From contig DITN01000094.1 in the NCBI GenBank assembly GCA_002422865.1, forward strand, positions 12,661-76,660: DNA of 64,000 nucleotides, read 5' to 3'. This DNA is from Bacteroidetes bacterium UBA6183. Its GTDB lineage: Bacteria; Bacteroidota; Bacteroidia; UKL13-3. Under the pieces are notes generated by a model. The model was not told where the DNA came from. It saw nothing but the letters and a program-made list of their open reading frames with translations, and did not search any database. Positions 7,655 through 32,845 of the stretch are shown here, one piece after another; within the stretch, counting starts at the first letter, position 1, and every line of letters begins with the position of its first letter. The translations under genes were made by a program, and so were the position numbers.

Positions 7655-7726
7655 TAGTCTCGACAGGAATCGAACCTGTATCAAATGTTTAGGAAACATC
7701 TATTCTATCCATTGAACTACGAGACC
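7655..7726 (-). tRNA. tRNA-Arg (anticodon CCT), no encoded CCA
   Basis: Minus-sense GGTCTCGTAGTTCAATGGATAGAATAGATGTTTCCTAAACATTTGATACAGGTTCGATTCCTGTCGAGACTA folds as a cloverleaf. Acceptor is 7 bp with G1·U72, D stem GTTC/GAAT, anticodon stem GATGT/ACATT, loop TTCCTAA, T arm ACAGG-TTCGATT-CCTGT. Confidence 0.85.
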
Positions 7727-7728
7727 AT
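7700..7728. repeat. attL core: 29-bp direct repeat (tRNA-Arg positions 1-27 plus 2 nt upstream)
   Basis: Exact match to 32817-32845. The flanking sequences diverge immediately on both sides. Confidence 0.8.
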
Positions 7729-7792
7729 AAACCCTTGCTGGGCTTGGGTCAAATATAATAAAGTTTTATAAAAATGAGTCATTTTTCACCAT

Positions 7793-7817
7793 TTACTGCT
7801 CAATTCACTGCTCAAAA
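7793..7817. repeat. Left arm-type direct repeat TTACTGCTCAATTCACTGCTCAA, a tandem 'ACTGCTCAA' duplet, overlapping the 3' end of int
   Basis: 23/24 identity with 32704-32729. Both copies lie inside the island in the same orientation, 65 and 87 bp from the respective core repeats. Confidence 0.6.
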
Positions 7818-9299
7818 TTTTTCATAAAATTCCCTTGCTGCAAAACGACTTTCATGGTTATAATGTCTTGAATTTAAGTATATTTTGGTTGTCTTTTCTG
7901 AGGCATGGTTCAGTGTACCCTGTATTTGATGTGTAGTAAATCCTGCTTCTCTCATGTGTCTTGCTACTGTATGTCTTGGTGTATGTCCACTTAAATCTTC
8001 TATACCCAATGCTTCTCCAATCCGTTTTATTGCACCATTATGTTTGGCTCTGCACCGCTGAATTTGGTATTCATGTTTCTTATTAAAGTTTTTGTAATTG
8101 TACATCGTTCCTTTAAAGTCTTTTACTTTCAGGTAGGGGAAAATAAACCTTTCTTCTTCTTCACTTAAAATCTCAAAAAATCTGTTTACAACTGCACGCT
8201 GTAGTTTAACCCTTATCTCAGTTATTTTCTCAACTACAAGGTGTGAAAAGTCATCGGTTTTTTCTTTCAGTTGAATCTCCAAATCTATTAAGTCATCCAC
8301 TGTCCACTTTGTAATTGGTTTGTGATATCCTATTTGAACCATATTGGCAATCGTTTTTATCGGCAGCCTTAACTCTGATAAGGTTACACCGCCATTAACT
8401 TGTTTTACCAATTCTGGGTAATAATTCGTTAGCGCGTTAAGCATTTGATAATTTACATCAACTACTGTTGTGTCATCTATTTTTCTGGTAGGTATGAACA
8501 GACTACCGGACTTATACATCTTGTTTGTAAGTAATATTGCATCCTGAAATCGAATACCTGAGCAGTAGTATTGAAAGATAAATACACTTTGGGCCAATTT
8601 CTCTGATTCAGCACCCCGGTTTCCTTTTGGTTTGTAATCAATTAATTCCTGAATTTGAATAGGCTCGGGAACTTTTATCTTTTGTAGTTTTTCAACTCGA
8701 ATATCCGCGGTGAATGGTAGTGTATTGATTGGGTTTTGCGTTCCACTAATCGTGTTCCAACGTTTTACAATAGAGGCAAACAACGACATATACGATCTTA
8801 ATGCTTTATTCGATTTAACCTTACCTGTCTTTCTTGAAACCCTTATTTCTTCTCGTATTTTTTCAATTTCTGAAATATTTCTCAAAGCCTTGAAGGGTAT
8901 ATATTCCGTGCCGTAAAGTTTGATTGCTGCCTCCTTAAAATTGTTGAAGATGATTACGTATTTGTCTGCAGACCCCGTTGCAATGTTCTTATTTTTATGA
9001 TTACGTTTAATTTCCTCTTCAAATAATTTTAGTGCACATTGTTCGTCAGGTAATAATCCACCATGTTTTATTTCTTTTTCAAACGATTCAACTACATGGT
9101 CTATTATGTTGTTTATTGGCTCTGATTCTATGTAATTTTTCTTAACTCTCCCGTTTGTTTTCTCCCAGTATTTGAACGGCACTCTTATTTTGTAACTTTT
9201 CCGTTCTAGCACTTTAGCCCCCTCAAGTTTATAATGACAAAGTACACCTGTCTCCTTATCCTTTTTGTTACTGCGCAAATAAAATTTGATGTGTGCCAT
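7812..9299 (-). CDS. int: Tyrosine site-specific integrase (phage integrase family)
   Basis: 495 aa. The C-terminal catalytic region 'HTPRHTVARHM...HQIQGTLNHASEKTTKIYLN' carries the His-x-x-Arg, second His and nucleophile Tyr pattern. The gene abuts the tRNA and attL. Confidence 0.85.
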   Translation of the reverse strand: MAHIKFYLRSNKKDKETGVLCHYKLEGAKVLERKSYKIRVPFKYWEKTNGRVKKNYIESEPINNIIDHVVESFEKEIKHGGLLPDEQCALKLFEEEIKRNHKNKNIATGSADKYVIIFNNFKEAAIKLYGTEYIPFKALRNISEIEKIREEIRVSRKTGKVKSNKALRSYMSLFASIVKRWNTISGTQNPINTLPFTADIRVEKLQKIKVPEPIQIQELIDYKPKGNRGAESEKLAQSVFIFQYYCSGIRFQDAILLTNKMYKSGSLFIPTRKIDDTTVVDVNYQMLNALTNYYPELVKQVNGGVTLSELRLPIKTIANMVQIGYHKPITKWTVDDLIDLEIQLKEKTDDFSHLVVEKITEIRVKLQRAVVNRFFEILSEEEERFIFPYLKVKDFKGTMYNYKNFNKKHEYQIQRCRAKHNGAIKRIGEALGIEDLSGHTPRHTVARHMREAGFTTHQIQGTLNHASEKTTKIYLNSRHYNHESRFAAREFYEKF

Positions 9300-9301
9300 C
9301 G

Positions 9302-9607
9302 CTAATATACCTTTCTAAGTTTATGGTTTATTCTATTAACCAAAATACTTTCTAATCCTTGGTGTAGCGCTAAGATAAAGCGTTTTCGTCCATCTACAAT
9401 ATAATTTTCTGTATCAATTGTTATAGGTTGCGTGTTGGTGTAATCTATGTTTTCTGAAAACAAAAATTCCAGTTCACTGATTTGTAGTTCCTCTCCATCT
9501 TTTATTTTTATTTCCTCCAATCTAACGCACTCAGGTGTTTGTTCACTTTTAGTGTGTACTTTTAGTTCACTTGTGTGGTTTTGATATGTCTGTCTGAGAA
9601 GATTCAC
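9302..9607 (-). CDS. Small ParB N-terminal-like domain protein immediately upstream of int (possible recombination directionality/accessory factor)
   Basis: 101 aa. 'YIVDGRKRFILALHQGLE' resembles the ParB/Srx 'DGxHR..A' motif also present in the neighbouring MTase N-terminus. Its stop is 3 nt from the int start codon. Confidence 0.45.
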   Translation of the reverse strand: MNLLRQTYQNHTSELKVHTKSEQTPECVRLEEIKIKDGEELQISELEFLFSENIDYTNTQPITIDTENYIVDGRKRFILALHQGLESILVNRINHKLRKVY

Positions 9608-9816: not shown

Positions 9817-11340
9817 CTAGGCTGCAATGTTTAATTCAGTCTGGTTATTTTCCTCGTTAAGGAAATAATTAAACCTTTTTGAAGAAAATTCAATTGATGC
9901 AGGGTCTACATCATATCCAACAACGTTTCTTCCCATTGTTAAACCTATTCCAACTGTACCTGAGCCAACAAAGGCATCAAGTAAAGTATCACCCGGATTT
10001 GAATATGCTTTTATGAATTTTTCGTAGGTTTTAGTACATGCTGGTGCATCGTGTCTAAAATCGGGGTCTATCATTTTGAACTCATTTTTATTAAACGCTG
10101 GTGTTTTTATAACATTAGTAAGATGTTTTACATCATTACCCTTATAATATTTACGCTGTCCGTTTTTCTTTCTTTTTGACTTTTTTAATCCAATTACTTT
10201 GTCTGAATCATCATCTTCATCCTCAACCAAGTTAAATGTCATTTCACCCCCGGGTTTACTCACCACAATTGCCACCTCGTAAGCAGGTTGAAATCTGTTT
10301 TTAAGATCCTGTGGTACTGGGTTTTCCTTGGCTAAAATATTCATATCTACACCAATCCATCCGTCTTCAATCAACGCAGTCATTAACCTTGGACAAATAG
10401 CGTTGTAGCCACCTAAATATGATTCACCAATGATTATCACATTCATACCACCCGGTTTTAGTTTAGTTTTTATTCCACGGTTAAATTTAATCTGATTTTC
10501 TATGTATTCTGAAACAGTTTTTTCTTTACCGTGTTTCATATCATCCTGATTCGGATAATTCCTTTGATTGAAATAGGGTGGGCTTTGAATAGCCATGTCA
10601 ATTGATTCGTCTTCTAAGTCACTGAGGTCAAGTGATGACTTATTGAATAGTTTATACCTAGTTGTTTGAGTGTTGATTAAACCGCCCAAAACCCTCTGTT
10701 TAGCTTGTTCTTTAGAGTGACTTAATTTATACATCTCAAATACTTTGTAAGCACCATGCGGTGAAGTTTCCCCCTTGTCTAATTGATCTATTAAATCCAA
10801 TTTAACCTGTTCGGGTAGATAGGTTTCATCTTCAAAAATTGTCATTATTTTTCTAAGTGTTTTCGAACCGTAATCACAATCTACTTGTATTGTTGCCCAT
10901 TCCATTCTTTCTTTTTTAATACCCTCTGGAAATTCGACTTCATCCCATTCGGTTCTTTTTTTTCCGCGCTGTCTTCCTAACGGATAAAGTATGTGGTTTA
11001 GTTGATTGTAAATTTCAGACCATGTTCTTTTGGTGTTTGTGTTGTTGATAATATGGTCATCTACGATTTCAACGTTTTCGCTTAAATCAATAATCTCACA
11101 GTCCAGTTCGTTGAACTCTTCTGGGTTTTCCTTATTCAATTCCTTTGCAGCAATCAATCTTTTTACACCATCAACAATGAGATAGGCATCATCTCCATTG
11201 TTAACTACTTTGATGCAGTTACGCTGTCCTTTCGTTTTTAAACTGAACTTCATTTTGTTACATAAACGTGGTTCTGACACCTTTTTTACTCCTTGATGAA
11301 CTCCAAGTTGATCAAGAGTGATTCTTTTAATTTTTAACAT
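9817..11340 (-). CDS. ParB-like nuclease domain fused to an N6-adenine/N4-cytosine DNA methyltransferase (beta-class, orphan MTase)
   Basis: 507 aa. The N-terminal 'LIVDGVKRLIAAKEL' is a ParB motif. Motif IV is 'SPPY' (QSPPYFNQ) and the AdoMet motif I 'LLDAFVGSGTVGIG' lies C-terminal to it. Confidence 0.75.
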   Translation of the reverse strand: MLKIKRITLDQLGVHQGVKKVSEPRLCNKMKFSLKTKGQRNCIKVVNNGDDAYLIVDGVKRLIAAKELNKENPEEFNELDCEIIDLSENVEIVDDHIINNTNTKRTWSEIYNQLNHILYPLGRQRGKKRTEWDEVEFPEGIKKERMEWATIQVDCDYGSKTLRKIMTIFEDETYLPEQVKLDLIDQLDKGETSPHGAYKVFEMYKLSHSKEQAKQRVLGGLINTQTTRYKLFNKSSLDLSDLEDESIDMAIQSPPYFNQRNYPNQDDMKHGKEKTVSEYIENQIKFNRGIKTKLKPGGMNVIIIGESYLGGYNAICPRLMTALIEDGWIGVDMNILAKENPVPQDLKNRFQPAYEVAIVVSKPGGEMTFNLVEDEDDDSDKVIGLKKSKRKKNGQRKYYKGNDVKHLTNVIKTPAFNKNEFKMIDPDFRHDAPACTKTYEKFIKAYSNPGDTLLDAFVGSGTVGIGLTMGRNVVGYDVDPASIEFSSKRFNYFLNEENNQTELNIAA

Positions 11341-11620: not shown

Positions 11621-12160
11621 TTATTGTTTGTTTTTTGTCGGTTTGGATTTGAAACTAAATATCTCCTCAATTAAATTTTCATTTGATTTATCAATTGAAG
11701 AAAAGAAACCCTCTTCTCCTCTTGTTCTTAGTTCTCTTGCAATCTTTTGTTTTACCATTACCATGAATTTATCAGATTTAATATCCATTCCCTCGGTATA
11801 TGGGCAAATGTAAAATCTAAATTCTTTTTTCTTCCCACCTTGCATTGGCCAGAACATTCTTGCATTGACATAAGATCTATCGTTCATTTCACCCGCTGCT
11901 TTCACCACAACTGTATATATGGTTGGGAATATCATTTCCTTAGTTCTAGCATATTCTAAGGTTAATGCTTGAAGTTCTAAAAAAGTGGTTGCATGCTTTT
12001 TCATGAAATTAATAACATCCATTCTACTTTGTTCTAGGATGAATAACTTTTCATCGTATTCTGTAATACCGTTCTTTTCAGATACTATATAATCAGATGG
12101 TTCGATATACTCGTCTACCCACTCTTTTAGATCAAATATTTTTGGATTTTTCCGTTTCAT
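11621..12160 (-). CDS. Hypothetical protein (probable start at MKRKNPKIFD; the ORF extends to 12205)
   Basis: ORF of 194 aa with no recognisable motif. Confidence 0.45.
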   Translation of the reverse strand: MKRKNPKIFDLKEWVDEYIEPSDYIVSEKNGITEYDEKLFILEQSRMDVINFMKKHATTFLELQALTLEYARTKEMIFPTIYTVVVKAAGEMNDRSYVNARMFWPMQGGKKKEFRFYICPYTEGMDIKSDKFMVMVKQKIARELRTRGEEGFFSSIDKSNENLIEEIFSFKSKPTKNKQ

Positions 12161-12639
12161 TACAATCAATTTGATGATGCAAATATATAACTGAAATACA
12201 TACATACAAGATGTATATTGTATTATTTTTAAAATTTTATATATGTATATGTATAACAGCGCATTAAAATTTGATATTGGTTATCTTAACAATCATTTTA
12301 AGCTTTTTATCTCAAAAAAATTAGTCTTTATAAATCATGTTAAACCACATTAGATTCAATTGTTAAAGAAATAGATTCAGTAGCTAAAGGACAACTATGA
12401 AATTTGTAACTAAAGATGTATAAAATTCAAATATTGGTTTACAAATAGTATTAAGGTACTTCTGGTTAATGTAACTTCTATATTCATAAATACAAATTGA
12501 TATTATTAGTTAAGAATTGGATATGATGCTACAGCATATAGTTTATTATATATTAATTTATAATACTTAAAATTTCTTACTAGTGCCAGTATATTATTTT
12601 TTATATTCTAGTGCTAGTATCTAGTTATTATTATAATTC

Positions 12640-12925: not shown

Positions 12926-13153
12926 ATGACAAAATATAAGAAAAATATTTCGGATTACAAAGAGCATCTGAATTTTTTGTACGACAACGTAATATTTATT
13001 GGTATGAGAAAAACCAATTACAATAAAAGAATCATGACCCGTGTAACCGAAGATCAATTAGAAATGATTATCAAGGAAACAATTAATGAACAAAAGACCC
13101 AAAGTAAGTTTCTGCGTGAGGCCATAATCGACAAACTAAAAAGTAAGAAATAA
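12926..13153 (+). CDS. Ribbon-helix-helix (CopG/MobC-like) small DNA-binding protein; the true start may be the internal Met (MRKTNYNKRIMTRVTEDQ)
   Basis: 'KRIMTRVTEDQLEMIIKETINEQKTQSKFLREAIIDKL' fits an RHH beta-strand followed by a helix. Its stop overlaps the next start (ATGA at 13153). Confidence 0.5.
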   Translation: MTKYKKNISDYKEHLNFLYDNVIFIGMRKTNYNKRIMTRVTEDQLEMIIKETINEQKTQSKFLREAIIDKLKSKK

Positions 13154-13398
13154 TGGAAAGAGTAAAACTAATAGACAGGATGTACCTTTTTGAAGAGCCA
13201 ATCTTAGTTACACCGGAAGAGGATGAATATGTTACATATATAATGGGAGAAATGAGATTTGATGAACAGAATGAATATTCACTTACAATTGATATTACCC
13301 CGCAACATTTAGCAAACTATATCATCAATCTAAAAAGAAGGAGTCCTTCAATAAGTGGAGTAACTTTAAATGATTTGGAGATAAATAATGAAAAGTAA
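13153..13398 (+). CDS. Small hypothetical protein (81 aa), paralogue of the next ORF
   Basis: Shared pattern 'ID.hY.F..L..hT.EE..Y...IM' and 'hhN.I.N.KR'. Translationally coupled to its neighbours. Confidence 0.5.
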   Translation: MERVKLIDRMYLFEEPILVTPEEDEYVTYIMGEMRFDEQNEYSLTIDITPQHLANYIINLKRRSPSISGVTLNDLEINNEK

Positions 13399-13597
13399 AC
13401 CTAGAATAGATAGTATATATAGGTTTAAAATTCTAACCGATATAACTGCCGAGGAGAAAGCTTATGCAAGAAAAATAATGAATCAATTGAACCACGATAT
13501 GAAATATGTTTACCCAGACGATATTCCTTACACGAGTGATTCTGTTGTTAACATGATAACTAATATCAAACGTATTGCAGATAGATTAGGTATATAA
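13388..13597 (+). CDS. Small hypothetical protein (69 aa), paralogue of the previous ORF
   Basis: Compare 'IDSIYRFKILTDITAEEKAYARKIMNQL' with 'IDRMYLFEEPILVTPEEDEYVTYIMGEM'. The ORF overlaps the previous stop by 11 nt. Confidence 0.5.
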   Translation: MKSKPRIDSIYRFKILTDITAEEKAYARKIMNQLNHDMKYVYPDDIPYTSDSVVNMITNIKRIADRLGI

Positions 13598-14941: not shown

Positions 14942-17900
14942 TTATTCTTCTGCTGCTATCGAATATGAATCTTCGTTGGTTTCGTAAAGTTTACTACTAA
15001 AGTCGTTTGCTAGTAGTTTTGCTTGTTCTATTACTGTTTCTGTGGCCTTAGTTTCTAAATCTGGTGGGTAACCATGTTTGCGTAAAATCCTTTTTACCGC
15101 AATTCTCATTTTGGCTTGAATCGTTTCTCTCACAGTCCAATCAATGTTGGTATTTCTTTTTACTGTATCAACCAACTCACGTGCAATGTGTCGTAAAATT
15201 TCATCACCCAACACTGCAACAGACGAATCATTTACTTCAAGTGCAGTATAAAAAGCATACTCCCTAAAATCCAATCCCATGTCTTCACCTCGTCTGTCGG
15301 CCTCCTTAATATCCTTGGCCAATCGAATCATTTCTTCGATAATTTGAGCGGAAGTAATTAGGTTGTTTTGGTATGATTTCATTGATTTCTCCAACATCTC
15401 AGAGAACTTTTTTGATTGAACTAAGTTTACCTTTTGTCTGGTTTTGATTTCATCGTTTAGAAGTTTTTTTAGTAACTCCAAAGCCAGATTTCTATGGGTC
15501 ATTCCTTTCACCTCAGCTAAAAATTCATCAGAGAGAATGGAAATATCCGGTTTTTTAATTCCGGCAGCATCAAAAATATCAATCACCTCATCGGCAACAA
15601 CAGCATCAGACAAAATCTGTTTGATGGCTGTTTCTATTTCTTCATCTGTTTTTCCTTTACCACTTTGGGTTACTTTTACAATACGTGTTTTGATTGCTTG
15701 AAACAATCCAACAGTCTCTCTTATATCAGTAGTATAAGGGTGAGGTACAGAAATAGCAAAAGCCTTTGTTAATGCTGTTACAGCAGTAACGAATCTATTT
15801 TTACCGTTTTCTAATCCTAAAATATAGTTGGCTCCTTGTATTGGGAAGTATAATTTCTCTTTGGGTGTTTTACCAAAAAACGATTTGTAATCAAATCCTT
15901 TTGGTGCTGTATTATCAAGTGGTTGTTCGTTAAACATATTACACACCACTTCAAATTTACCCATCATTACTTCGGCAGCTTCATCTTGGTCGATAGTTGG
16001 TTTTCCTTTACCACCACTTTCGGTATATAATGATAACGCCTTCTTTAAATCGTTTGCTATACCAATGTAATCTACCACCAAACCACCATCCTTATCTTTA
16101 TAAACCCTATTAACCCTTGCAATGGCTTGCATCAGGTTATGACCTTTCATCGGTTTATCAATGTAAAGTGTGTGCATGGATGGTGCATCAAACCCAGTTA
16201 ACCACATATCTCTTACTATGGCAAGTTTTAATGGGTCTTTAGGGTCTTTTAATCGTTCACCTAGTGCTTTACGTTTAGCCTTGTTTCTAACGTGAGATTG
16301 AAAGTTTAATGGGTCGGATGATGAACCTGTCATTACCACTTTTACTGTACCTTCATTATCATCATTGCTGTGCCACTCCGGTTTTATCTTTATGATTTCA
16401 TTGTAGAGGTCAACACATATTCTACGACTCATGCACACAATCATTGCTTTACCATCCAACACAGCATTACGTGATTCAAAGTGTTGAACAATATCTTTTG
16501 CAATTAATTTAAGTCTGTGTTCATTACCTACAATGGCTTCCAACCTTGCCCATTTAGATTTTAAACTTTGTCTTGAATTTAATTCTTCACCCTCGGTTAA
16601 TTCTTCAAACTCTTCATCAACTCTTGGTTTTTCATCTTCCAATAAGTCAATTTTTGCTAGTCTGTTTTCATAAAATATCCTAACCGTTGCACCATCTTCT
16701 ACCGCTTGCTGTATGTCGTACACATCAATGTAATCACCAAAAACGGCTTGGGTATTCTTATCCGTATTTTCAATGGGTGTTCCGGTAAAACCTATAAAGG
16801 AAGCATTGGGTAAAGCATCCCTCATGTGTTTGGCAAAACCATCCATAAAGTCATACTGACTGCGGTGTGCTTCATCTGCAATAACAACTATGTTTCTTCT
16901 TTCTGATAATAGTTCAAATTGTCCTTTTATGTTTTTAAACTTACCATCTCCAATCTCAATTTTCTCTTGTATTTCGGGTAAGAATTTTTGGATGGTAGTA
17001 AATACAATACCACCCGAACTTACACTAAGTTTCTTTTTAAGGTCGTCTCTGTTTTCTGCTTGTACAGGTGTTTGTCTGAGTATATCCTGACTTAAAGAGA
17101 ACGTATCAAATAACTGGTCATCTAAGTCGTTTCTATCAGTTAAAACAATAAGTGTTGGGTTGTTTAATGCTAGTACCAATTTACCTGCATAAAACACCAT
17201 ACTTAAACTTTTACCACTACCCTGTGTGTGCCAAATTACACCGGCTCTTTGGTCACCATTTTCTGCTGTTGCTCGTTTGGTGGTTTCTACTGCTTTGTTT
17301 ACCGCAAAGTACTGATGGTAACGAGGTACAATTTTGGTTATCTGTTCTTTGTTTAGATGAAATAGAATGTAATGTCTAATTAGGTCGGGTAATACCCTTT
17401 TATTGAGCATACCCTTAACCATTACCTCCATTTGTGGTATGTCTTCATCTGCAACAAATTTTCCATCAATTGATTTCCACGGAACAAAAAATTGTTTAGG
17501 TGCTGTTAAAGAACCATACAGTGCATCCCAACCATCAGACACAATTAATAGTGAGTTATAGGTAAACAGAGATGAAATGGTTTGTTTATAGGTTTGTAGT
17601 TGGTTAAACGCTGAGTTAATGGTTGCGTTTTCATCAACAGCGTTTTTAAGTTCAATTACAACCAACGGAAGTCCATTAACAAACAAAATTAAATCGGGGC
17701 GTTTATTAATGTTGTTTTCAATAATTGTAAATTGATTTACTACCAAAAACTCGTTGTTATCAGGGTTGGAAAAGTCTATTAACCATACCTTGTCACCAAC
17801 AATTCTACCACCTTTTCGGTATTCAATATCTACACCCTCGGTAAGGTATTTGTGGAAGGTGTAATTGTTTTGAAATAAGTTGGGACTATCTGTACGTAAA

Positions 17901-18157
17901 ACCTTCTTCAGCGCTTCTTCCTGTGCTTCTCCGGGGACGGTTGGATTCAGTCTGGAAATGGTATCTCTCAATCTTTGTTTAAGAACCACCTCATCAAACT
18001 CACGTTCTTGTGCAACACCATCTGGTGAAATATCTGCACCGTTAACGTATGAGTATCCAAGGTCTATAAACTCTTGGATAATGATTTGTTCTATATTGTT
18101 TTCAGATAGTATGGCGGCCATGGTTATGGGTTTATATTTCTGATACCTCCAACTCAC
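14942..18157 (-). CDS. hsdR: Type I restriction enzyme R subunit (HsdR); the likely true start is the internal Met at ~18121
   Basis: 1071 aa. Helicase motifs 'HTQGSGKS' (Walker A) and '[10 protein letters not shown]' (DEAH). Confidence 0.9.
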
Positions 18158-21080: not shown

Positions 21081-21520
21081 CAGATTAATTTTTCAATTGG
21101 TATGAATTTGTTGGATAGGTTACAACTTTCAAATTCAAACAAGTCAAAGTGAGTGTGTTTGCCTTCTTCTGTAATCAAACCATCATTGCCATCAATTAAG
21201 CCTGTACTTAGTGTTTCACCAACCGCTTTGTAAAATTTAGGGATGTGTTTACTGTGTTCTAAAAAAAATTGTTTTGCACTATCTGGTCTTTTAAAGCAAG
21301 AAAGGCCATACAATGAACATTTTTTTTGATCCTTCTCATTTAATACTCTTTGAGGATTATTTGCACCAGGGGGCTTGTGGTTTTTTATATGATAAGGATC
21401 TTCAAACACAAAACGAAATGTTTGCAGATTATTAGGCACTATTAATTCATCAGGAGGGCAGCAGATACCCATCTGTTGAATTTTTTCAATTTCTCGTTTA
21501 TATTTTAATTTTTCGGTCAT
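21080..21520 (-). CDS. Hypothetical protein (146 aa) embedded in the type I R-M operon
   Basis: Its start overlaps the hsdM stop (ATGA at 21517-21520). It contains an A8 run in the coding sequence (21313-21320). Confidence 0.5.
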
Positions 21521-23025
21521 ATCTCAATCCCCACTTTTTTAAGGTTCTCTTTAATACGTTTCTGTAATTCTACTGATTCAGTAAAATGTAATTTCAGGTT
21601 GGTTGTTATCCCTTGTATTTTTTCCTCAAAGGAAACTCCATCGTCTTCTACATCTTCAGTACCTACATAACGTCCGGGTGTTAAAACAAAATTATTATCT
21701 TCAATATCCTTTAGTGTGGCCGATTTACAAAAACCTTGTATGTCTTCATATCCTCCATCTTTACTTCTCCACTTGTGGTATACTTCAGCAATTTTGCTTA
21801 TGTCATCATCGGTAAAGGCTTTGTTTTTTCTACTCACCAATGTACCAAATTTACGTGCATCAATAAATAGTATTTCGTTCTTACGTTTACGGTATTTACC
21901 ATTGGTTTTATTACGTGCCAAAAACCATAAACAAGCAGGTATTTGGGTATTAAAAAACAACTGTGTAGGTAGTGCAACCATACAATCAACCACACCATCC
22001 AAAATCATGTTTTTCCTAATCTCATTTTCTCCACCAGAGTTTGAGGTCATAGAACCATTGGCCAACACAATACCTGCAACACCACTAGGACTAAGTTTAT
22101 TTAAAACCAATTGTAACCAAGCATAGTTGGCGTTTCCGGCAGGTGGTACACCATATTTCCATAAGTGTGAATCCTGTAATGACTCGGCACCATAATCAGA
22201 AATATTGAAAGGGGGATTCATGATGGCGTAATCCACCTGAATGTCTTTGTGTCTATCGTTGTGTAAGGTATCGCCTAATTCAATTTTGGCATCAATACCC
22301 CTGATGGCTAGGTTCATTTTGGCTAGCTTGTAGGTGGTTGGGTTACTCTCTTGTCCATATACCGCTATATCCCCAATTTTACCTCCGTGAGCTTCCAAAA
22401 ATTTCTCACTTTGAACGAACATACCTCCAGACCCACAGCAGCCGTCATAGATACGGCCATTGTATGGTTCTAACATTTCAACTAGGAGTTTAACAATACT
22501 GTCTGGAGTATAAAATTGTCCGCCACGTTTACCTTCAGCATCAGCAAACATTCCTAAGAAATACTCGTACACTCTTCCCAACAGGTCTTTACTATTCTGA
22601 CCGGGTTCATTGAAACCAATGTTTCCAATTAGGTCAATTAACTCACCCAAACGTTTTTTATCAAGTGCCGGTCGAGCATAATCTTTTGGTAAAACACCTT
22701 TCAAATTGGGATTGTCCTTTTCAATGGCATCCATTGCATCGTCAATATCTTTACCAATGGTAGGGAGTTTGGCTCTTTCGTATTGAAGGTATTCCCAACG
22801 TGCAATGGTGGGTACGAAGAACACATTCTCTGCTAGGTATTCGTCCTTATCTTCCGGGTTTGATAGTGGGTCACTACTTAACTTGGTATGTAGTTCTTTA
22901 AAACTATCTGATATGTATTTCAAGAAAATCAATCCAAGTACTATGTGTTTGTACTCGGCAGCATCCATGTTATTACGTAATTTATCTGCTGTAGCCCAAA
23001 GGGTCTTTTCTAAATCTTTTACCAT
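21517..23025 (-). CDS. hsdM: Type I R-M N6-adenine DNA methyltransferase subunit (HsdM)
   Basis: 502 aa. Motif I '[11 protein letters not shown]' and motif IV 'NPPFN'. Confidence 0.9.
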
Positions 23026-23279: not shown

Positions 23280-23720
23280 ATGACACACAAAAAAACAATA
23301 GGATTGAAAATTTACCCGGTATCAACCGAAACGGAGTTGGATTTACAACTCATCGAAGGAGGGGTGTCAGCCGGATTCCCTTCACCTGCTAGTGATTTCT
23401 TAGATCAGGCAATTGACTTGAACAAACACCTTATAAAGAACCCATCAACTACATTTATTGCTGTAACTGATGGTAACTCCATGAAGGATGCAGGGATTAC
23501 GGATAAGGACTTATTGATTATTGACAAATCATTAAGACCAACTAACGGTAAAATTGCGGTATGTATTATTGATGGAGAATTTACGTTAAAACGACTGAAA
23601 GTAACCAGAGAGGGTATTTGGTTAGTTCCGGCTAACAATGAGTTTAAACCGACTAAAATTACCGAATTTAACGATTTTTCGATATGGGGTATAGTTACCT
23701 ATTCTATTCAAAAACACTAA
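23280..23720 (+). CDS. umuD: UmuD-like S24 peptidase (LexA/UmuD family)
   Basis: 146 aa. Ser nucleophile in 'DGNSM' and Lys in 'FTLKRLK'. Confidence 0.8.
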   Translation: MTHKKTIGLKIYPVSTETELDLQLIEGGVSAGFPSPASDFLDQAIDLNKHLIKNPSTTFIAVTDGNSMKDAGITDKDLLIIDKSLRPTNGKIAVCIIDGEFTLKRLKVTREGIWLVPANNEFKPTKITEFNDFSIWGIVTYSIQKH

Positions 23721-23723: not shown

Positions 23724-24986
23724 ATGTTTGCACTAGTTGACTGCAATAATTTCTATGCATCTTGTGAAAGGGTTTTTCAACCAAAACTCAGGAACAAACC
23801 TATTGTTGTTCTATCAAACAATGATGGGTGCGTAATTGCACGAAGTAATGAGGCTAAGAAATTGGGTGTTCCAATGGGTGCAGTAGCGTTCGAATACAAG
23901 GAATTATTTGAAAAGAATAATATTCATGTTTTCTCAAGTAACTACGCGCTTTATGGTGATATGAGTAATAGGGTTATGACTTTGTTATCAGAATTTTCAC
24001 CTGATGTTGAAGTTTACAGTATTGATGAAGCTTTCTTAAAGCTTGAAGGGTTTGAAAAATATTTCGATTTCAACGAGTATGGTAAACAAATGAGGGAAAC
24101 TGTCACCACCGGAACAGGTATACCCATAAGTGTTGGTATTGCACCAACAAAATCATTGGCCAAGGTGGCCAATAAAATTGCCAAGAAATTTCCTGAACGT
24201 ACCGAAAATGTGTATGTGATGGATACTGAGGAAAAACGAATTAAGGCACTGAAATGGTTACCCGTGGAAGATGTATGGGGAGTTGGACGACAGCACAAAA
24301 TTAGACTGGAAAAATTGGGAGTAAAAACTGCTTATGATTTCACCTGTCAAACGGAAGAATGGGTAAAGAAAAACATGAGTGTGGTCGGTTTGAGGTTACA
24401 CAAAGAACTTAATGGTGAATCTTGTCTGGATATTGATATTCCTAGTGACAAGAAGAATATTGCAACAACAAGAAGTTTTGATTCAACCCACGAGGATATA
24501 GAATACCTGAAAGAAAGAGTAGTTACCTACGCCACCATTTGTGCAAAAAAGTTACGAAAACAAGGTTCGTGTGCAAACTCACTGATGGTGTTTGCACATA
24601 CCAATCGTTTCAGAGATGACTTACCTCAATACTCCAAAAGTTGTGTTATTAAACTACCATTCCCAACCAACTCAGATATAGAGATTGCAAGGTTTGCAGT
24701 ACAAGCCCTTGAGAAAATTTATAAGAAGGGTTATCAGTATAAAAAGGCGGGTGTAATTCTGATGGACTTTACCCCGGAGAGTAATATCCAAATTAATATG
24801 TTTGAAAACAGTAACCCAAAACATAAAATTGCAATGGGTGTACTTGATAAAATAAACGATGGTATTGGTAAGGTTACTGTTAAACTAGGTTCTCAGGATA
24901 AAGACCGAACTTGGAAAATGAGACAAGAGAAACTATCACCAAGGTACACCACCAGAATTAATGAACTTATAAAAATCAGATCATAA
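23724..24986 (+). CDS. umuC: Y-family translesion DNA polymerase (UmuC / Pol V catalytic subunit)
   Basis: 420 aa. N-terminal 'MFALVDCNNFYASCERVFQPKL...VVLSNNDGCVIARS' is typical of the UmuC/DinB family. It lies 3 nt after umuD. Confidence 0.85.
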   Translation: MFALVDCNNFYASCERVFQPKLRNKPIVVLSNNDGCVIARSNEAKKLGVPMGAVAFEYKELFEKNNIHVFSSNYALYGDMSNRVMTLLSEFSPDVEVYSIDEAFLKLEGFEKYFDFNEYGKQMRETVTTGTGIPISVGIAPTKSLAKVANKIAKKFPERTENVYVMDTEEKRIKALKWLPVEDVWGVGRQHKIRLEKLGVKTAYDFTCQTEEWVKKNMSVVGLRLHKELNGESCLDIDIPSDKKNIATTRSFDSTHEDIEYLKERVVTYATICAKKLRKQGSCANSLMVFAHTNRFRDDLPQYSKSCVIKLPFPTNSDIEIARFAVQALEKIYKKGYQYKKAGVILMDFTPESNIQINMFENSNPKHKIAMGVLDKINDGIGKVTVKLGSQDKDRTWKMRQEKLSPRYTTRINELIKIRS

Positions 24987-25597
24987 TGTGTTTTCATTCC
25001 AGACAAATTTCTAAACCGGAAACTCTCGAGCAACGTTTCGATGCCAAGTTCACCGAAAGCAACTACGAGGGTAAAGACAGGTTTATTGGTTTTTCATACC
25101 CACAAACCCCAGTAATCACCAATGTAAACGAACATACAATTGATTTATACCATTGGGGGTTGATTCCTTTCTGGGCCAAGGATGACAGTATCAGAAAAAA
25201 CACCTTGAATGCTAGAATTGAAACTCTGAGTGAAAAACCATCATTTAGGAATAGTATAAAAAACCGTTGTTTGATTTTGGTTGATGGATTTTACGAGTGG
25301 CAGTGGAAAGACCCGAAGGGAAAGGAAAAACAACAATACCTTATTACACTTGACAAGGACGAACCTTTTGCGTTTGCAGGTATATACTCAGATTGGGTTA
25401 ATAAGGAAACTGGTGAGGTCATAAAAACCTATTCAATCATCACAACTGAGGCCAATGAGTTAATGGCAGAGATACACAACAATAAAAAACGTATGCCTGT
25501 AATACTTACACCGGAAAACGAAAAGTTGTGGTTACACGGCACCGATGTAAATGAGTTTTTCAAACCTCAAGTTGATTTGAAGGCGTATGCGATTTAG
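24986..25597 (+). CDS. SOS response-associated peptidase (SRAP/YedK/HMCES family; abasic-site DNA-protein crosslink enzyme)
   Basis: 203 aa. It begins 'MC' (catalytic Cys2), with 'HWGLIPFWAKD' and 'RMPVIL' signature motifs. Its start overlaps the umuC stop. Confidence 0.75.
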   Translation: MCFHSRQISKPETLEQRFDAKFTESNYEGKDRFIGFSYPQTPVITNVNEHTIDLYHWGLIPFWAKDDSIRKNTLNARIETLSEKPSFRNSIKNRCLILVDGFYEWQWKDPKGKEKQQYLITLDKDEPFAFAGIYSDWVNKETGEVIKTYSIITTEANELMAEIHNNKKRMPVILTPENEKLWLHGTDVNEFFKPQVDLKAYAI

Positions 25598-27526: not shown

Positions 27527-28585
27527 TTATTGGAGCAATATTTTCCTTATGTCAACAATATTACCACTGTTGTCTATTAGTTGGAGGAAATATATACCAT
27601 TACCACCCCAAGCAGTAATGTCAATGTTAAACTGCTGTTGGTTGATGTTACTTTGAAATACTTGTTGTCCCAAAGAGTTCATGATCTTAATTGAGTAACC
27701 AGTCATCTTTGATAGATTACCATTGTCAATTGTGATCTTGTCTTTCGTTGGGTTTGGATAAACTTTCAATGTGTTTTCAAATGTAATTGGGTTGTATCCT
27801 GTTCTATTCACATTTATAACCAAGGTGTCAGTTACACTGATTCTATCGACACATAAATTAGCGTTATAAAGTCCTTTTATTTCTGATTCTGTTAATGCAC
27901 GGTTCCAGATTCCGATGTCATCAACTAAACCATTTAAAAATCTGTTCGGAGTTCCCAAACCATTGTCACACCCAAAATATAATGGATTGGTACTATTACA
28001 AACTGTTGAACTAATATTATTTGAGTCTTTTAACACCCCATTTACAAATAATTTAGCACCATTTGAGCTTCTTACTATTGTAAAATGTATCCACTTAAGT
28101 GAATCAATATTACCTCCAATTAAAGAGTTTTGAGGATACATTTGAAAATCACGAGTTACAACAACTAATTCCTTAGAAGAACTGATAAAAACGGCATAAT
28201 CGTCACTGCTATTGTTACAGTTTTTATTCCCATACCATTTAGTTACAACTCCACTTAATAAATTTTGATTATTTGGAAATCTGTTTACATACAACCATCC
28301 TGAAATAGAAAACTCTGTTGGGCTTGATATATTTGGGCTGTTTGATATCGTAATGTATTTGTTTTGACCTGTTTCAACAGAGGTGTTATTTCCAAATCTA
28401 TCAGTCGATAAAACTGAACCATTTAATATCCCATTATTACCATTACCACTAATGTCATTTGCGTTACCATTGAATGGCCACCATCCAACTAATCCATTTG
28501 TTGGTACGTATGATGGAACATTTTGAGAGAAAACAGTGTTGGAGAAAATTGTAATTCCAATTAGTATTGTTATAAAGTATTTCAT
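27527..28585 (-). CDS. Secreted LamG/concanavalin-like lectin-domain protein with T9SS C-terminal sorting domain
   Basis: 352 aa. Signal peptide, 'YVPTNGLVGWWPFNGNANDISGNGNNG' (LamG), and a C-terminal 'KVYPNPTKDKITIDNG...GIYFLQLID...KILLQ' (Por_Secre_tail hallmark YPNP). Confidence 0.8.
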   Translation of the reverse strand: MKYFITILIGITIFSNTVFSQNVPSYVPTNGLVGWWPFNGNANDISGNGNNGILNGSVLSTDRFGNNTSVETGQNKYITISNSPNISSPTEFSISGWLYVNRFPNNQNLLSGVVTKWYGNKNCNNSSDDYAVFISSSKELVVVTRDFQMYPQNSLIGGNIDSLKWIHFTIVRSSNGAKLFVNGVLKDSNNISSTVCNSTNPLYFGCDNGLGTPNRFLNGLVDDIGIWNRALTESEIKGLYNANLCVDRISVTDTLVINVNRTGYNPITFENTLKVYPNPTKDKITIDNGNLSKMTGYSIKIMNSLGQQVFQSNINQQQFNIDITAWGGNGIYFLQLIDNSGNIVDIRKILLQ

Positions 28586-28611
28586 ATCGATGAGTTATTA
28601 TTATTTGACTG

Positions 28612-29649
28612 TTACTGAAGAAGGATTTTTCTAAATTCAACAGTGTTTCCAGTTTTATCCATCAGATGTAAATAGTAAATACCATTACCACCCCAAGCAG
28701 TTATGTCAATATCGAATTGTTGTTGATTGATATTACCTTGAAATACCTGTTGTCCCAATGAGTTCATAATCTTAATTGAATAACCAGTCATCTTTGATAG
28801 ATTACCATTGTCAATTGTAATTTTATCTTTGGTTGGGTTTGGATAAACTTTCAACGTGTTTTCAAATGTAATTGGGTTGTATCCTGTTCGATTTACATTT
28901 ATGATAAGTGTATCAGTTACCGCAATAGATTGAAAACAAAGACTTGCGTTATAAAGTCTTTTTATTTCTGATTCTGTTAATGCACGGTTCCAGATTCCGA
29001 TGTCATCTAACTTTGAGTTAATATGATCAAACATGTTTGTTCCCGCATATCTTGCACCAAAGGTTAGATTTGCTGTATTGTTGATGTTATGGATAACCGA
29101 GGTAGTATCGGTAAAATGTAGATTACCATTGATATAAATTTTAATGATATTTCCTGTTCGAGACAGTACATAACTTTTCCAATTATTTAAAAGATTTGAA
29201 CTTGATCGATAACTATAGTAATCTGACATCAAGTTTTGATTTAGTTCTAAGGATGGTGCATTTCCCCAAGACATTGAGAAAAAGTTTCCATATCCTATAT
29301 CTTTTCTTTTGGAAATCAATGTTCCGCCATTTATAGAGTCTACGTCTTTAACCCAACAAGAAATAGTAAAGTTACTATTTTGAAAATTCCCAACTGTATT
29401 GTTAATGTATATAAAGTTATTTGTTCCATTAAAACTATATGCCGTTGCTGAATTATCAAATCTATCACCAGTCAATGTGGCCCCAATCACCGTACCATTA
29501 TTCCCATTACCACTTTCATCATTAGCATTACCATTAAATGGCCACCAACCCACCAGTCCATTTGTTGGAACGTAGGTAGGAAGATTTTGTGCTTGCGAGT
29601 AGTTTAACCAACCAAACACAAGGATTAATTTTATAATAAATTTGTTCAT
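28612..29649 (-). CDS. Secreted LamG-like protein with T9SS C-terminal domain, paralogue of 27527-28585
   Basis: 345 aa. Same N-terminal LamG motif. The 3' ~330 nt (28660-28990) is ~90-95% identical in nucleotide sequence to 27575-27905. Confidence 0.8.
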   Translation of the reverse strand: MNKFIIKLILVFGWLNYSQAQNLPTYVPTNGLVGWWPFNGNANDESGNGNNGTVIGATLTGDRFDNSATAYSFNGTNNFIYINNTVGNFQNSNFTISCWVKDVDSINGGTLISKRKDIGYGNFFSMSWGNAPSLELNQNLMSDYYSYRSSSNLLNNWKSYVLSRTGNIIKIYINGNLHFTDTTSVIHNINNTANLTFGARYAGTNMFDHINSKLDDIGIWNRALTESEIKRLYNASLCFQSIAVTDTLIINVNRTGYNPITFENTLKVYPNPTKDKITIDNGNLSKMTGYSIKIMNSLGQQVFQGNINQQQFDIDITAWGGNGIYYLHLMDKTGNTVEFRKILLQ

Positions 29650-30269: not shown

Positions 30270-30794
30270 TTAAAATTTAAAGAATACTCCTGCATTTACA
30301 CCAAAAGCTGATGTAGACTCCACTTCAGTAAATATGTAATGATATTTAACATTTGCGTTTACTCCGAAGTTGTCTGTAATACTGTAATTAGCCCCTAAAA
30401 TCGATGCCATTCCAAAATTACTTGTTGATAATGATGCACCATCCCCAGAAATTCCAATTCTGTAAATTCCTAAATCGGCACCGAAATACGGACTAAAATC
30501 ATTATCAGTAAAGCTATACTCTATAGAACCAGTTATTGGCATAATAAAAGAGGTTAACTCATCTCCCATAAAGTCATATGTCTTTGAATAATACCCGAAA
30601 TTAACACCAGTCCTAATTTTCTCATTTATGTCATACCTTCCAGACAGACTAAATCCTAAATGGGCATCAGAGCCTTCGGCTGTTGGTTTAAATAGACCCA
30701 AATTTAAACCTGCTGAGATTTGTGCGTTTGAAATGGTCGAGCATAATAGACAGAATACCAAAATGCTTAGTTGATTAATAGTTGTTTTTTTCAT
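30270..30794 (-). CDS. Outer-membrane beta-barrel protein (OmpA-like N-terminal barrel/PF13505-type, 174 aa)
   Basis: Signal peptide, alternating amphipathic beta-strands rich in Gly/aromatic residues, and a C-terminal 'FFKF'. Confidence 0.6.
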   Translation of the reverse strand: MKKTTINQLSILVFCLLCSTISNAQISAGLNLGLFKPTAEGSDAHLGFSLSGRYDINEKIRTGVNFGYYSKTYDFMGDELTSFIMPITGSIEYSFTDNDFSPYFGADLGIYRIGISGDGASLSTSNFGMASILGANYSITDNFGVNANVKYHYIFTEVESTSAFGVNAGVFFKF

Positions 30795-31013: not shown

Positions 31014-31418
31014 ATGAAAATGTTAGAGTTTGAATCAATCTCGGATAGATTAAAGAAAATTCGAATTGAAAAGAATGTAAGTCAAGATTTTCTGGCCAAG
31101 AAAATTGGCATAACACAGAAGGCATATTCAAAAATTGAAAACAATGAGACTAAACTCAATGTTGAGGTACTCCAAAAAATATCAGATATATTAGAAGTTC
31201 CTGTTGAATCATTTTTTAAAGGTTCAAGTTCACCTGTTTTAAATGACTTCAGTAACCGTTCAGGCGGAGACAATGTGGTGTATAAGAATGGATCTGTTGA
31301 AAAGGTAGAGGAGTTGTATGAGAAAATTCTCAAAGCAAAGGATCAGGTGATACAATCCAAAACTGATGAAGTGGAAACCTTAAAGTTGGTAATTAAAAAG
31401 ATAAAAGAGGTAAAGTAA
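31014..31418 (+). CDS. XRE-family (Cro/CI-type) HTH transcriptional regulator
   Basis: 134 aa with 'VSQDFLAKKIGITQKAYSKIENNETKLNVEVLQKISDILEV'. Confidence 0.8.
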   Translation: MKMLEFESISDRLKKIRIEKNVSQDFLAKKIGITQKAYSKIENNETKLNVEVLQKISDILEVPVESFFKGSSSPVLNDFSNRSGGDNVVYKNGSVEKVEELYEKILKAKDQVIQSKTDEVETLKLVIKKIKEVK

Positions 31419-31465
31419 TCTTGATTTCGGTTATTCTACCGATTCTAATAATAGTTTAACTAATT

Positions 31466-32623
31466 TTATACTGCTGCGGATATTGGGAAGTAGTTTCCGG
31501 GTAACTGAAGTGTGAATTTTATTGGTGGTTTAATTTTATCGGGTACTGCACCATAATCAGGTATCAATTCCAATAACCTGTCTTTTATCGTTTCGGGATA
31601 TAAGTCTTGAATTATTATTTCTCTAGGCCTACAAGCCGAGAGTATTTTTCTATCAATTTCTGCGTTGAAAAATGGGAATGAATAACCAACAATAATTAGT
31701 CTTTCGGTATTTTTAATTACATCAAGGATGTTTGTAATCATATTATCAAATCCCGGATATTTTTCATCTTTTTCCCAAGCAAAATTGAAGTATTTGAATA
31801 CATCTGCTCCAGTTAATTTACCTTCAGGGAATAACTCTTCAAATTCAACAAGGTAATCTCCAATTTTAGCACTATCACTCCTTTGTGTATTAGGATTAAT
31901 ATTAATATCATGTGGTGTAACACCATTAGACCCTTCATTCTGAAAAACCCTATCCATAAAAGCATTTCCGTTTAATTTGAACATCGAAAACCTATTTGGA
32001 TCTATTATCTTGTTTTTAGCCTCGTTTAAACTTTTTTGATTTGGATGAATTTGATACTTGTTTTTAATAACATTAATCTTTTCGTTCGTGTAGTTTTGGA
32101 TGGTATGTTCAACCTGTAAGTCATAGTTCCATGTTATTATTTTAATATCATCACGGAGTTTAATCCCATTAACATCGTTTTCGGCAATAGAGGCGATTAG
32201 GTTGTCATATCTTTTATCTATTAAGAGTTGATATTTTGTATTTTTACCTTCAAATCCAACACACTGTTCGAAGAAAAAGTAGGAAACCAATCCTCTTTTA
32301 AGCCTTTTTAAACTTTCATGGTCACCCTTTAAAGAAAACTTTCGTGCCAATGTATCAACTGTTTGATGAATTTCAGATTCAGTATATAAGAACTCTAAAT
32401 CGTCTTTAATAACTCTCAGAGTGTTCTGGTGTTCTCTTATCCTACTATCTAATTTTTGGAGTAATGGAGAATATACGTCAGTGGTAATATAGCTTTCAAT
32501 AAATTGAGATAAATCTTTTATACGGTCTCTCAAACCATCAATAGTAGGAATTGCTTGGATACTTGCACCTGCACCGAGGTAATAAACAGTGTTTTTCATG
32601 TTGGTTATACAATTTTTGTACAA
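31466..32623 (-). CDS. Stand-alone SIR2_2-like (defence-type SIR2) domain protein; the conserved catalytic His appears to be replaced by Asn
   Basis: 385 aa. Ordered motifs 'YYLGAGAS' (GAGxS), 'IITWNYD' (TTNYD), 'FKLNGNAF' (aligning with KxHGx) and 'LIIVGYSFPFFNAEID' (GYSxxD) match the ThsA/SIR2_2 pattern. Alignment was done by eye. Confidence 0.5.
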   Translation of the reverse strand: MYKNCITNMKNTVYYLGAGASIQAIPTIDGLRDRIKDLSQFIESYITTDVYSPLLQKLDSRIREHQNTLRVIKDDLEFLYTESEIHQTVDTLARKFSLKGDHESLKRLKRGLVSYFFFEQCVGFEGKNTKYQLLIDKRYDNLIASIAENDVNGIKLRDDIKIITWNYDLQVEHTIQNYTNEKINVIKNKYQIHPNQKSLNEAKNKIIDPNRFSMFKLNGNAFMDRVFQNEGSNGVTPHDININPNTQRSDSAKIGDYLVEFEELFPEGKLTGADVFKYFNFAWEKDEKYPGFDNMITNILDVIKNTERLIIVGYSFPFFNAEIDRKILSACRPREIIIQDLYPETIKDRLLELIPDYGAVPDKIKPPIKFTLQLPGNYFPISAAV

Positions 32624-32703
32624 TTTATTGGGATAACCCTTACGAAAACAAACAAGATTTGCACACGACTATGTTGTGTTGGGCTTGGATATTGATATTA
32701 CAG

Positions 32704-32729
32704 TTACTGCTCAAATCACTGCTCAATTT
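32704..32729. repeat. Right arm-type direct repeat TTACTGCTCAAATCACTGCTCAA
   Basis: See left copy. It lies between the SIR2-like gene start and attR. Confidence 0.6.
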
Positions 32730-32816
32730 GTGTTTTTTAACACGACTTTTTCCTTGAAGATTATTGATGGTACTGGGTTTCGGGGGATTGGTAGTGGTTG
32801 GTTCTTAAAAGTGAAC

Positions 32817-32845
32817 TATTCTATCCATTGAACTACGAGACCATT
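32817..32845. repeat. attR core: 29-bp direct repeat, a partial copy of the tRNA-Arg 5' end
   Basis: Exact match to 7700-7728. No remainder of the tRNA follows it. Confidence 0.8.

Follow-up and report, generated by a model that had tools for sequence, protein, structure and literature searches.

A putative 25-kb integrative element in the 5′ part of a tRNA-Arg(CCT) gene in Bacteroidota

The tRNA-Arg(CCT) gene and the ends of the island

This report concerns a putative integrative element of 25 kb adjoining a tRNA-Arg gene in contig DITN01000094.1 of Bacteroidetes bacterium UBA6183; by "the window" we mean the whole 64-kb stretch of the contig that was analysed. The two ends of the island, including the left and right attachment sites (attL and attR), contain the following features.

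7654..7726, minus strand: intact tRNA-Arg(CCT) (ARAGORN; Rfam RF00005, 66.9 bits, model positions 1-71 of 71)
7700..7728, no strand: attL core, 29-bp direct repeat (tRNA nt 1-27 plus 2 upstream bases; sequence comparison)
7750..7757, minus strand: TATATTTG box, proposed element-supplied tRNA promoter, read from the sequence; it ends 23 nt upstream of tRNA +1
7794..7815, no strand: P′ arm-type repeats TACTGCTCAA-TT-CACTGCTCAA, sharing bases with the integrase stop codon; in the same place in all relatives
7812..9299, minus strand: tyrosine integrase, 495 aa (PF00589, 48.3 bits, residues 361-478)
9302..9607, minus strand: 101-aa protein directly upstream of the integrase; an 88-101-aa gene stands there in every relative (tblastn identity 38-48%)
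32705..32726, no strand: P arm-type repeats TACTGCTCAA-AT-CACTGCTCAA, 100% conserved in the attR of locus L010
32816..32844, no strand: attR core, displaced fragment from the tRNA 5′ end (nt 1-27 and the 2 bases before them; sequence comparison)
32845..32915, minus strand: native tRNA upstream region with the conserved box CGTTTACTATTTTCGCCCA, cut off from the body of the tRNA

The 29-mer CTATTCTATCCATTGAACTACGAGACCAT is found exactly at 7700-7728 and 32816-32844, with two copies only in the window; allowing as many as 3 mismatches adds no copy there, and none of 100 dinucleotide shuffles contained a match. The initial annotation had reported this exact direct repeat, which is real, and placed the left copy correctly; for the right copy it gave 32817-32845, one base too high. 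It had also associated the island with tRNA-Arg, and ARAGORN and Rfam do place a full-length tRNA-Arg(CCT) at the left end. What it overlooked is that this gene is on the minus strand, hence the repeat is the 5′ end of the tRNA gene and the island lies upstream of it. The integrase gene, said to begin 84 bp from the left repeat, has its stop codon and not its start 83 nt away, and is transcribed towards the tRNA. Arm-type repeats had been described inside both ends and are present there.

The tRNA-Arg(CCT) gene is a hybrid: nt 1-27 are inside the block of identity between the element and the host, and nt 28-73 are host-only. It is identical to the tRNA at the empty site of L005, a related genome considered below. 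The fragment equal to tRNA nt 1-27 at 32816-32842 is exact and lies on the same strand as the tRNA, in direct orientation, 25 kb upstream. Several features of the Islander signature can be found here, namely the full tRNA with a cognate 5′ fragment upstream, a tyrosine integrase in the interval and an uninterrupted site in a relative. The attR junction is identical in two other independent assemblies (L001 and L002).

The arms are a tandem 10-mer pair, TACTGCTCAA-nn-CACTGCTCAA, which in the window occurs solely at 7794-7815 and 32705-32726. The motif ACTGCTCAAWTCACTGCTCAA is restricted to 7795-7815 and 32706-32726 (0 expected by chance), and a GGGCTTGG box adjoins each of its copies. The reconstructed attP of about 227 bp consists of the P arms, 89 bp, the 29-bp core, 65 bp and the P′ arms overlapping the integrase stop; the attP junction was taken as ...GGTTCTTAAAAGTGAA + core + AAACCCTTGCTGGG... 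and the attB junction as ...GGAAACAT + core + TTTCATACAAC.... Two cores and two arm sets are all that 64 kb contain, which indicates one element; a tandem array was rejected, as there is no internal core or arm set.

In the integrase the R/H/R/H/Y catalytic motifs are present, and R250, H439, H443, H465 and Y474 are invariant in 13 homologues. Compared with the IntDOT-type scheme (PF17293, SAM-like PF13102 and the catalytic domain), PF00589 is the only integrase domain that passes its threshold: the N-terminal match to Arm-DNA-bind_5 (PF17293) is weak (E 0.034, 15 bits against a cut-off of 22.6 bits), and Pfam gave no match to the SAM-like core-binding PF13102 (Phage_int_SAM_5). The 101-aa protein encoded next to it is a candidate directionality factor.

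Orthologous loci were fetched via the ABC-2 (ATP-binding cassette) permease gene adjoining the right repeat, one genome per species, which gave 13 metagenome-assembled genomes (MAGs) of related freshwater Bacteroidota. The L005 permease is 99% identical to that of the window. L005 1-3578 aligns with window 4151-7728 at 96% identity, and L005 3550-9157 with window 32816-38423 at 89%; these alignments are collinear on both sides and overlap by precisely the 29-bp core, which is present there in a single copy (L005 3550-3578). L005 is thus a clean empty site; it proves the island reading and, with its flanks joined across one core, fixes the island as 7729-32815. The initial annotation had proposed a search for an empty tRNA-Arg site in relatives; the site in L005 is uninterrupted, the whole 25 kb is absent from it, and the island reading stands. 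The composition check across the boundaries, also proposed there, agrees: GC content is 0.342 in the island and 0.373 in the flanks, the tetranucleotide distance is 0.26-0.35 within the island and 0.13-0.19 outside it, and both shift at the boundaries.

The tRNA adjoins the ABC-2 permease gene also in L008, L009 and L011. The "empty" sites of these sister species are not clean. Upstream of tRNA-Arg (L008 at about 2498-2600, L009 at about 2464-2570, L011 at about 9660-9760) each has degenerate 5′ tRNA fragments ending in GGATAG(A/C)ATAG between the native upstream box and the intact tRNA, then unrelated DNA over 55-60 nt. These fragments resemble scars that past upstream integrations left behind when their bodies were deleted. 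In L010 the same site is occupied by an integrase-less mini-element of 2.4 kb (3812-6230) bounded by 30-bp repeats; its attL and attR arms are homologous to those of the window, the attR arm repeats being 100% conserved, and its cargo is only a 439-aa surface protein and a broken gene with a C-terminal domain of the type IX secretion system (T9SS). We take it for a deletion derivative or a non-autonomous element. L007 has a SusC/SusD-like pair (1,085 and 441 aa) between tRNA-Arg and the ABC-2 gene (1773-6824), with neither integrase nor att arms, so this spot varies for reasons beyond the present element family.

We believe that 7729-32815 (25,087 bp) is one site-specific integrative element, which its own tyrosine integrase of about 500 aa inserted into the host's tRNA-Arg(CCT) gene, within the 5′ part; our rough probability for this, jointly with the steps that follow, is 0.85. 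With the whole element upstream of the tRNA, both nt 1-27 and a promoter must come from the element. It would rebuild the tRNA with its own nt 1-27 and, probably, with its own promoter (the TAnnTTTG box). Shifted by 25 kb, the 5′ fragment and the native promoter would now face a gene for a SIR2-like protein. The cargo combines stacked defence genes (a type I restriction-modification system with PD-T4-10-like and PD-Lambda-3-like inserts, a ParB-methyltransferase and the SIR2-like gene) with damage-tolerance genes (umuDC, SRAP) and surface proteins.

Relatives of the integrase and the cargo

Among 5.8 billion proteins the integrase has only 18 relatives at E<1e-10. This rare family of about 500 aa has no functional name in the databases searched and is essentially absent from IMG/VR (one marginal match). 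In every relative with downstream sequence the integrase is followed by the arms, by 60-160 bp and, in the orientation of the integrase, by a tRNA-Arg(CCT) sequence. A backbone is common to most of them: three small genes on one strand and, on the other, a gene of about 190 aa, a ParB-methyltransferase, a gene of about 90-100 aa and the integrase. Several also have a small recombinase; the cargo varies and is mostly restriction-modification (R-M) or other defence.

Close relatives are L043 (75% protein identity) and L078-L080 (about 96% at the nucleotide level across integrase and attP), all of which share the promoter-like box and tRNA nt 1-27 with the window. The cargo of L078-L080 differs, and unrelated genes replace the ParB-methyltransferase; it seems that modules are being shuffled among very recent relatives. 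The L078 junction reads GAATAG/AAG, as in the tRNA allele of L008, and that of the window reads GAATAG/ATG, which points to a different host for L078. The combination of near-identical integrase/attP modules, other cargo and another host tRNA allele indicates that the integrase family is currently mobile.

A different arrangement appears in the distant relatives. Past the integrases of L044, L046, L048 and L049 (34-39% identity) the similarity to the tRNA begins only at about nt 15-21 (GATAGAATAG), and neither ARAGORN nor Rfam accepted these sequences as tRNAs. L044 is a complete integrated copy, with a host 5′ fragment GGTCTCGTAGTTCAACGGATAGAAT at 601-627 and the matching host 3′ part at 11599-11649; just inside its far end are arm repeats and a full tRNA-Arg(CCT) (784-858) whose acceptor stem differs. 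L051-L054 have the attP form: integrase, arms, ...AAGAAT/GTCGGG..., and a second arm set, which is followed by a complete tRNA in L052-L054 and by the contig end in L051. The distant relatives thus leave the host tRNA broken, and those seen far enough, L044 and L052-L054, bring a complete spare tRNA-Arg(CCT). The element-borne tRNAs (L044 784-858; L052 11764-11838) read GGATAAAAT in the D-loop region, where the host has GGATAGAAT, and therefore have no AGAAT core; this might protect the element's own tRNA from being targeted. ARAGORN and Rfam found no second tRNA inside the window island, which is accordingly not of the tRNA-dependent type.

The proposed promoter of the window element, TATATTTG, matches TAnnTTTG, which we take to be the −7 promoter consensus of Bacteroidota. 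At the position of the box, L043 and L010 have TATCTTTG and L078-L080 have TATATTTG. The native box CGTTTACTATTTTCGCCCA is kept upstream of tRNA-Arg in L005, L008, L009 and L011 and also at the attR of L010. In the window the displaced native region with the 5′ fragment is oriented towards the SIR2-like gene, which is directly downstream of it, and in L044-type relatives this slot is filled by their own tRNA. Since the displaced promoter faces the SIR2-like gene, the gene may be expressed only once the element is integrated. If this is true, we have a defence gene that depends on integration and is driven by a strong tRNA promoter.

The remaining genes of the island are listed below.

9817..11340, minus strand: ParB-like N-terminus fused to an N6/N4 DNA methyltransferase, 507 aa (PF01555 E 1.5e-27; PADLOC MTase_II; phrog_4715 ParB-like E 1.4e-5, residues 3-111)
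11621..12205, minus strand: 194-aa backbone protein, with a syntenic 181-198-aa gene in relatives
12926..13597, plus strand: three small backbone genes of 75, 81 and 69 aa, with homologous small genes in L043, L044, L046, L048 and L052
14163..14789, plus strand: small tyrosine recombinase, catalytic domain only, about 193-208 aa (PF00589 E 2.8e-15; phrog_216 E 3.8e-36)
14942..18157, minus strand: hsdR, type I restriction subunit (HSDR_N, SWI2_SNF2, T1RH-like_C; 96% nucleotide identity to L078)
18132..19358, minus strand: hsdS, specificity subunit (PF01420 E 1.1e-46, two matched stretches)
19355..19831, minus strand: PD-Lambda-3_A-like gene in the R-M operon (PADLOC PDLC03986 E 1.4e-20)
19842..21080 (B homologue) and 21080..21520 (A homologue), minus strand: PD-T4-10-like pair in the R-M operon (PADLOC; DUF6575)
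21517..23025, minus strand: hsdM, type I methyltransferase subunit (N6_Mtase E 6e-107; HsdM_N)
23280..23720, 23724..24986 and 24986..25597, plus strand: umuD (Peptidase_S24), umuC (IMS, IMS_C, DUF4113) and SRAP peptidase (SRAP)
27527..29649, minus strand: two paralogous LamG proteins with T9SS C-terminal sorting domains (Laminin_G_3 and Por_Secre_tail)
30270..30794, minus strand: small outer-membrane beta-barrel protein (OMP_b-brl E 2e-15)
31014..31418, plus strand: HTH_3 (Cro/C1-type) regulator (domain match)
31466..32599, minus strand: stand-alone SIR2-like protein, 377 aa (PADLOC SIR2 E 3.3e-7, weak)

This agrees with the cargo that the initial annotation had read from the sequence. The type I R-M system has hsdR, hsdS and hsdM, all with strong Pfam matches, within 14942-23025, and the cassette embedded in it consists of the PD-T4-10 A and B homologues and the PD-Lambda-3_A-like gene between hsdM and hsdS. 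PD-T4-10 A is matched at full length (E 2.2e-28), B over the first 133 of 353 profile positions only (E 3.4e-33). The hsdR and hsdS genes are common, at 96%, to the window and L078 only; the comparison with L078-L080 covered window 7699-9450 and 14949-18911. The ParB-methyltransferase matches N6_N4_Mtase, its ParB-like N-terminus is found by PHROGs, and its homologues in relatives show a weak PF02195 match. Domain matches were likewise obtained for UmuD, UmuC and SRAP, for the small recombinase and for the two T9SS cargo proteins. The LamG/T9SS genes (window 27512-29007) are a recent tandem duplication with units of about 1.1 kb at 83-93% nucleotide identity; such a duplication breaks short-k assemblies, and the L002 contig ends there.

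The SIR2-like family keeps the GAGxS, WNYD and GYSFP motifs. The AlphaFold2 model has a mean pLDDT (predicted local distance difference test) of 88.9, and its best Foldseek match is 8sub_A, the SIR2 subunit of SIR2-HerA (E 7.5e-6), followed by ThsA and CobB; a PDB sequence search with the protein gave noise matches to T4 lysozyme only. SIR2-domain defence proteins usually come with a partner or effector domain such as HerA, TIR/SLOG or pAgo; here no partner gene is adjacent. The protein is a candidate defence protein.

Among the backbone proteins, the 194-aa one has no family match in Pfam, NCBIfam, PADLOC or PHROGs. Next to its gene is a 720-bp AT-rich non-coding stretch (12206-12925), and the 75-aa protein beyond has a ribbon-helix-helix-like C-terminus with a weak NikA-like match (E 0.0095, under the Pfam cut-off). 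The small recombinase occurs also at L044 5088-5708, L048 4304-4873 and L049 9821-10390 (189-208 aa, 31-35% identity between elements), and recurs in either orientation where the conserved backbone meets the variable R-M cargo; possible roles are dimer resolution, inversion or cargo exchange. In the window it is bracketed by an inverted repeat (12315-12336/14822-14843, 82% complementary). We dropped the idea of an invertible segment around it, as the relatives gave no support.

Outside the island, the right flank carries tRNA-Phe (38857-38930) and, at 39065-42536, two selenium-related genes, one SelU-like (rhodanese and AAA_SelU) and one SelD-like (AIRS). All of them are ordinary genes of the host and are kept in related MAGs. 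Two giant minus-strand open reading frames (ORFs) in the flanks probably encode surface proteins. One runs from 7512 past the window start (1-7512; >2,500 aa) and has internal repeats of about 735 bp around 2386-4268; the other (48716-58264, 3,182 aa) explains the composition anomaly at 50-57 kb.

Crossover, movement and the alternative readings

Tyrosine recombinases exchange strands within a short identical overlap region. Since the identity block of the window ends at tRNA nt 27/28 and the distant relatives share only about AGAAT (nt 21-25, about 5 bp) with the target, we infer that the crossover would fall at about tRNA nt 20-27, at the D-arm/anticodon-stem junction. It could instead be placed at the classical anticodon-loop sublocation, with the identity stopping short through mismatch tolerance. 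The anticodon stem-loop does begin right after the identity block, but past nt 27 attR and the tRNA differ completely in the window and in L010, overlap identity is required by the established mechanism of these recombinases, and the distant relatives have nothing in common with the target beyond the five bases; we regard this placement as highly unlikely. In its favour one can also say that Islander classes its 5′-fragment islands under known subsites, i.e., anticodon loop, T loop and T/acceptor junction (PMC4383910). Such islands are a minority in that database, 159 with a 5′ tDNA fragment vs 3,760 with a 3′ fragment (PMC4383910, Table 1). Tentatively, and at somewhat less than even odds, we propose that the integrase family uses a fourth tRNA sublocation (the D-arm, on the 5′ side of tRNA-Arg(CCT)), has two interchangeable ways for the host to survive, and has the SIR2-like gene in the captured-promoter slot. 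As parts of the same tentative proposal, in one way the promoter and tRNA nt 1-27 would be donated (window, L043, L078-L080), and in the other the host gene would be left broken and a replacement tRNA read from the captured host promoter (L044, L052-L054).

As to movement, the initial annotation had noted the lack of a relaxase, a coupling protein and a type IV secretion system (T4SS), and none of the 25 island ORFs matches any of them in Pfam, NCBIfam or PHROGs. An integrative and conjugative element is ruled out on these grounds (no relaxase, type IV coupling protein (T4CP) or T4SS). The same databases gave no match to phage structural genes (capsid, terminase), PHROGs yielding the integrase and the methyltransferase only, and no primase/helicase replication module was detected in the island; with no match to capsid, terminase, packaging or replication genes, a prophage or a satellite similar to phage-inducible chromosomal islands was ruled out as well. 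Viral origin was rejected: in IMG/VR no match to the attL/attP side of the core turned up, and the integrase profile gave one marginal match.

Without transfer machinery, movement between cells must depend on something else. ParB-methyltransferases are found in leading regions of conjugative elements. The island could be a hitcher with an origin of transfer (oriT) but no relaxase (an oriT-only integrative mobilisable element), passed on after excision by a co-resident conjugative element. The missing relaxase, T4CP and T4SS genes, the small ribbon-helix-helix protein with its NikA-like match, the ParB-methyltransferase of a leading-region type and the AT-rich stretch at 12206-12925 all fit this, and oriT-only islands are reported to be common (bioRxiv 10.64898/2026.01.13.699239). 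We nevertheless find it somewhat doubtful: 12.2-14.1 kb holds only small ORFs and short AT-rich repeats, with no relaxase remnant and no recognisable oriT-like structure, the NikA-like match is under the Pfam cut-off, no helper element is known, and transformation or vesicle uptake fits the same data equally well. That the island is a fixed relic, which integrated once and no longer excises or moves, so that the repeat is a fossil, seems improbable. No excised form of it was found, and neighbouring species, in which this site carries decayed scars and an integrase-less mini-element, demonstrate that decay does happen; against this, the two copies of the 29-bp repeat do not differ, an undamaged integrase ORF retains its catalytic residues, neither arm set has decayed, and the integrase/attP module is found at about 96% identity with other cargo in three further samples. 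A composite origin, from at least two tandem elements or from an element with captured host DNA, would make the T9SS/outer-membrane/SIR2 block (26.4-32.8 kb) foreign to the integrase element. This block has the lowest GC content (0.324), the L010 mini-element also has T9SS-type genes beside attR, and cargo is mosaic among near-identical integrase modules. We consider such an origin distinctly improbable, however, as there is no internal core copy or arm set, the P arm is between the SIR2-like gene and the core, which puts the block inside the att sites, and L005 lacks the whole 25 kb.

Several points weigh against the reading of the island as one element that enters the 5′ part of the tRNA and rebuilds it. 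The position of the crossover and the promoter function of the TATATTTG box were both deduced from the sequence, and the box has no clear −33 TTTG beside it. The upstream configuration is known but uncommon, and the D-arm, while outside the subsites of Islander (PMC4383910), may already be described elsewhere. With no more than 89% identity in its right flank, L005 may represent a sister species and not the same population. Pattern scans of JGI metagenomes and viral contigs found neither attP nor repaired attB of the window element, contigs in attP form being those of distant relatives only. The exact core with the right flank had no match in JGI metagenome contigs either; a few bases of this flank are changed even in the closest relative, which makes exact matching too strict. 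The start of the Logan contig L004 (T, core and right flank) was considered as an attB 31-mer and dropped as a proof, because T precedes the core in the L010 attR too and L004 is ambiguous.

Meaning and comparison with known systems

tRNA-linked islands as such are routine; what this one adds is mainly confirmation that genes for defence, mutagenesis and the cell surface move together in freshwater Bacteroidota. What may be of interest is that one integrase family would have two answers to the cutting of an essential tRNA: to rebuild the gene and swap its promoter, or to bring a spare tRNA. This makes it a natural test case for the co-evolution of att sites and tRNA repair, as well as for promoter capture that switches cargo on after integration. 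The new attB specificity is a possible integration tool for Bacteroidota, where few exist.

NBU1 and NBU2 target tRNA genes, at the 3′ end. Together with CTnDOT they represent the IntDOT/NBU-type elements, to which the window element is similar in phylum, tyrosine integrase and arm-type sites; it differs in having no mobilisation or transfer genes. With the 5′-fragment minority of Islander/TIGER tDNA islands it shares the intact tRNA and displaced fragment, their direct orientation, the tyrosine integrase and the restoration of the gene by the island; unlike in them, its identity block ends at nt 27 and the crossover would be in the D-arm or at the D-arm/anticodon-stem junction.

In aquatic bacteria, tycheposons integrate specifically at tRNA genes and bring cargo with them (Hackl et al., bioRxiv 10.1101/2020.12.28.424599). 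They also lack conjugation genes, carry defence or niche cargo and form variable islands beside tRNA genes; the window element differs in the host phylum and in that no replication module was detected. The 10K island of Riemerella anatipestifer, for which integration and excision were shown experimentally (PMC6764341), likewise combines Bacteroidota, a tyrosine integrase and tRNA-Arg, but it is downstream of the tRNA and its 53-bp repeat is of unrelated sequence, whereas our island is upstream.

In actinobacteriophages, tRNA-dependent lysogeny has been described (Guerrero-Bustamante & Hatfull 2024, PMC10865867). L044 and L052-L054 resemble it: the core is short, the host tRNA is not rebuilt, and a complete tRNA of the same isotype lies beside attP. 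In contrast to it, they are non-phage elements of Bacteroidota that cut the 5′ part, and, once they are integrated, their own tRNA is about 180 bp downstream of the host promoter. The window element departs from this pattern, since it rebuilds the tRNA via the 29-bp block and has no tRNA of its own. Against this background, it is an element of an ordinary kind with an unusual attachment site.

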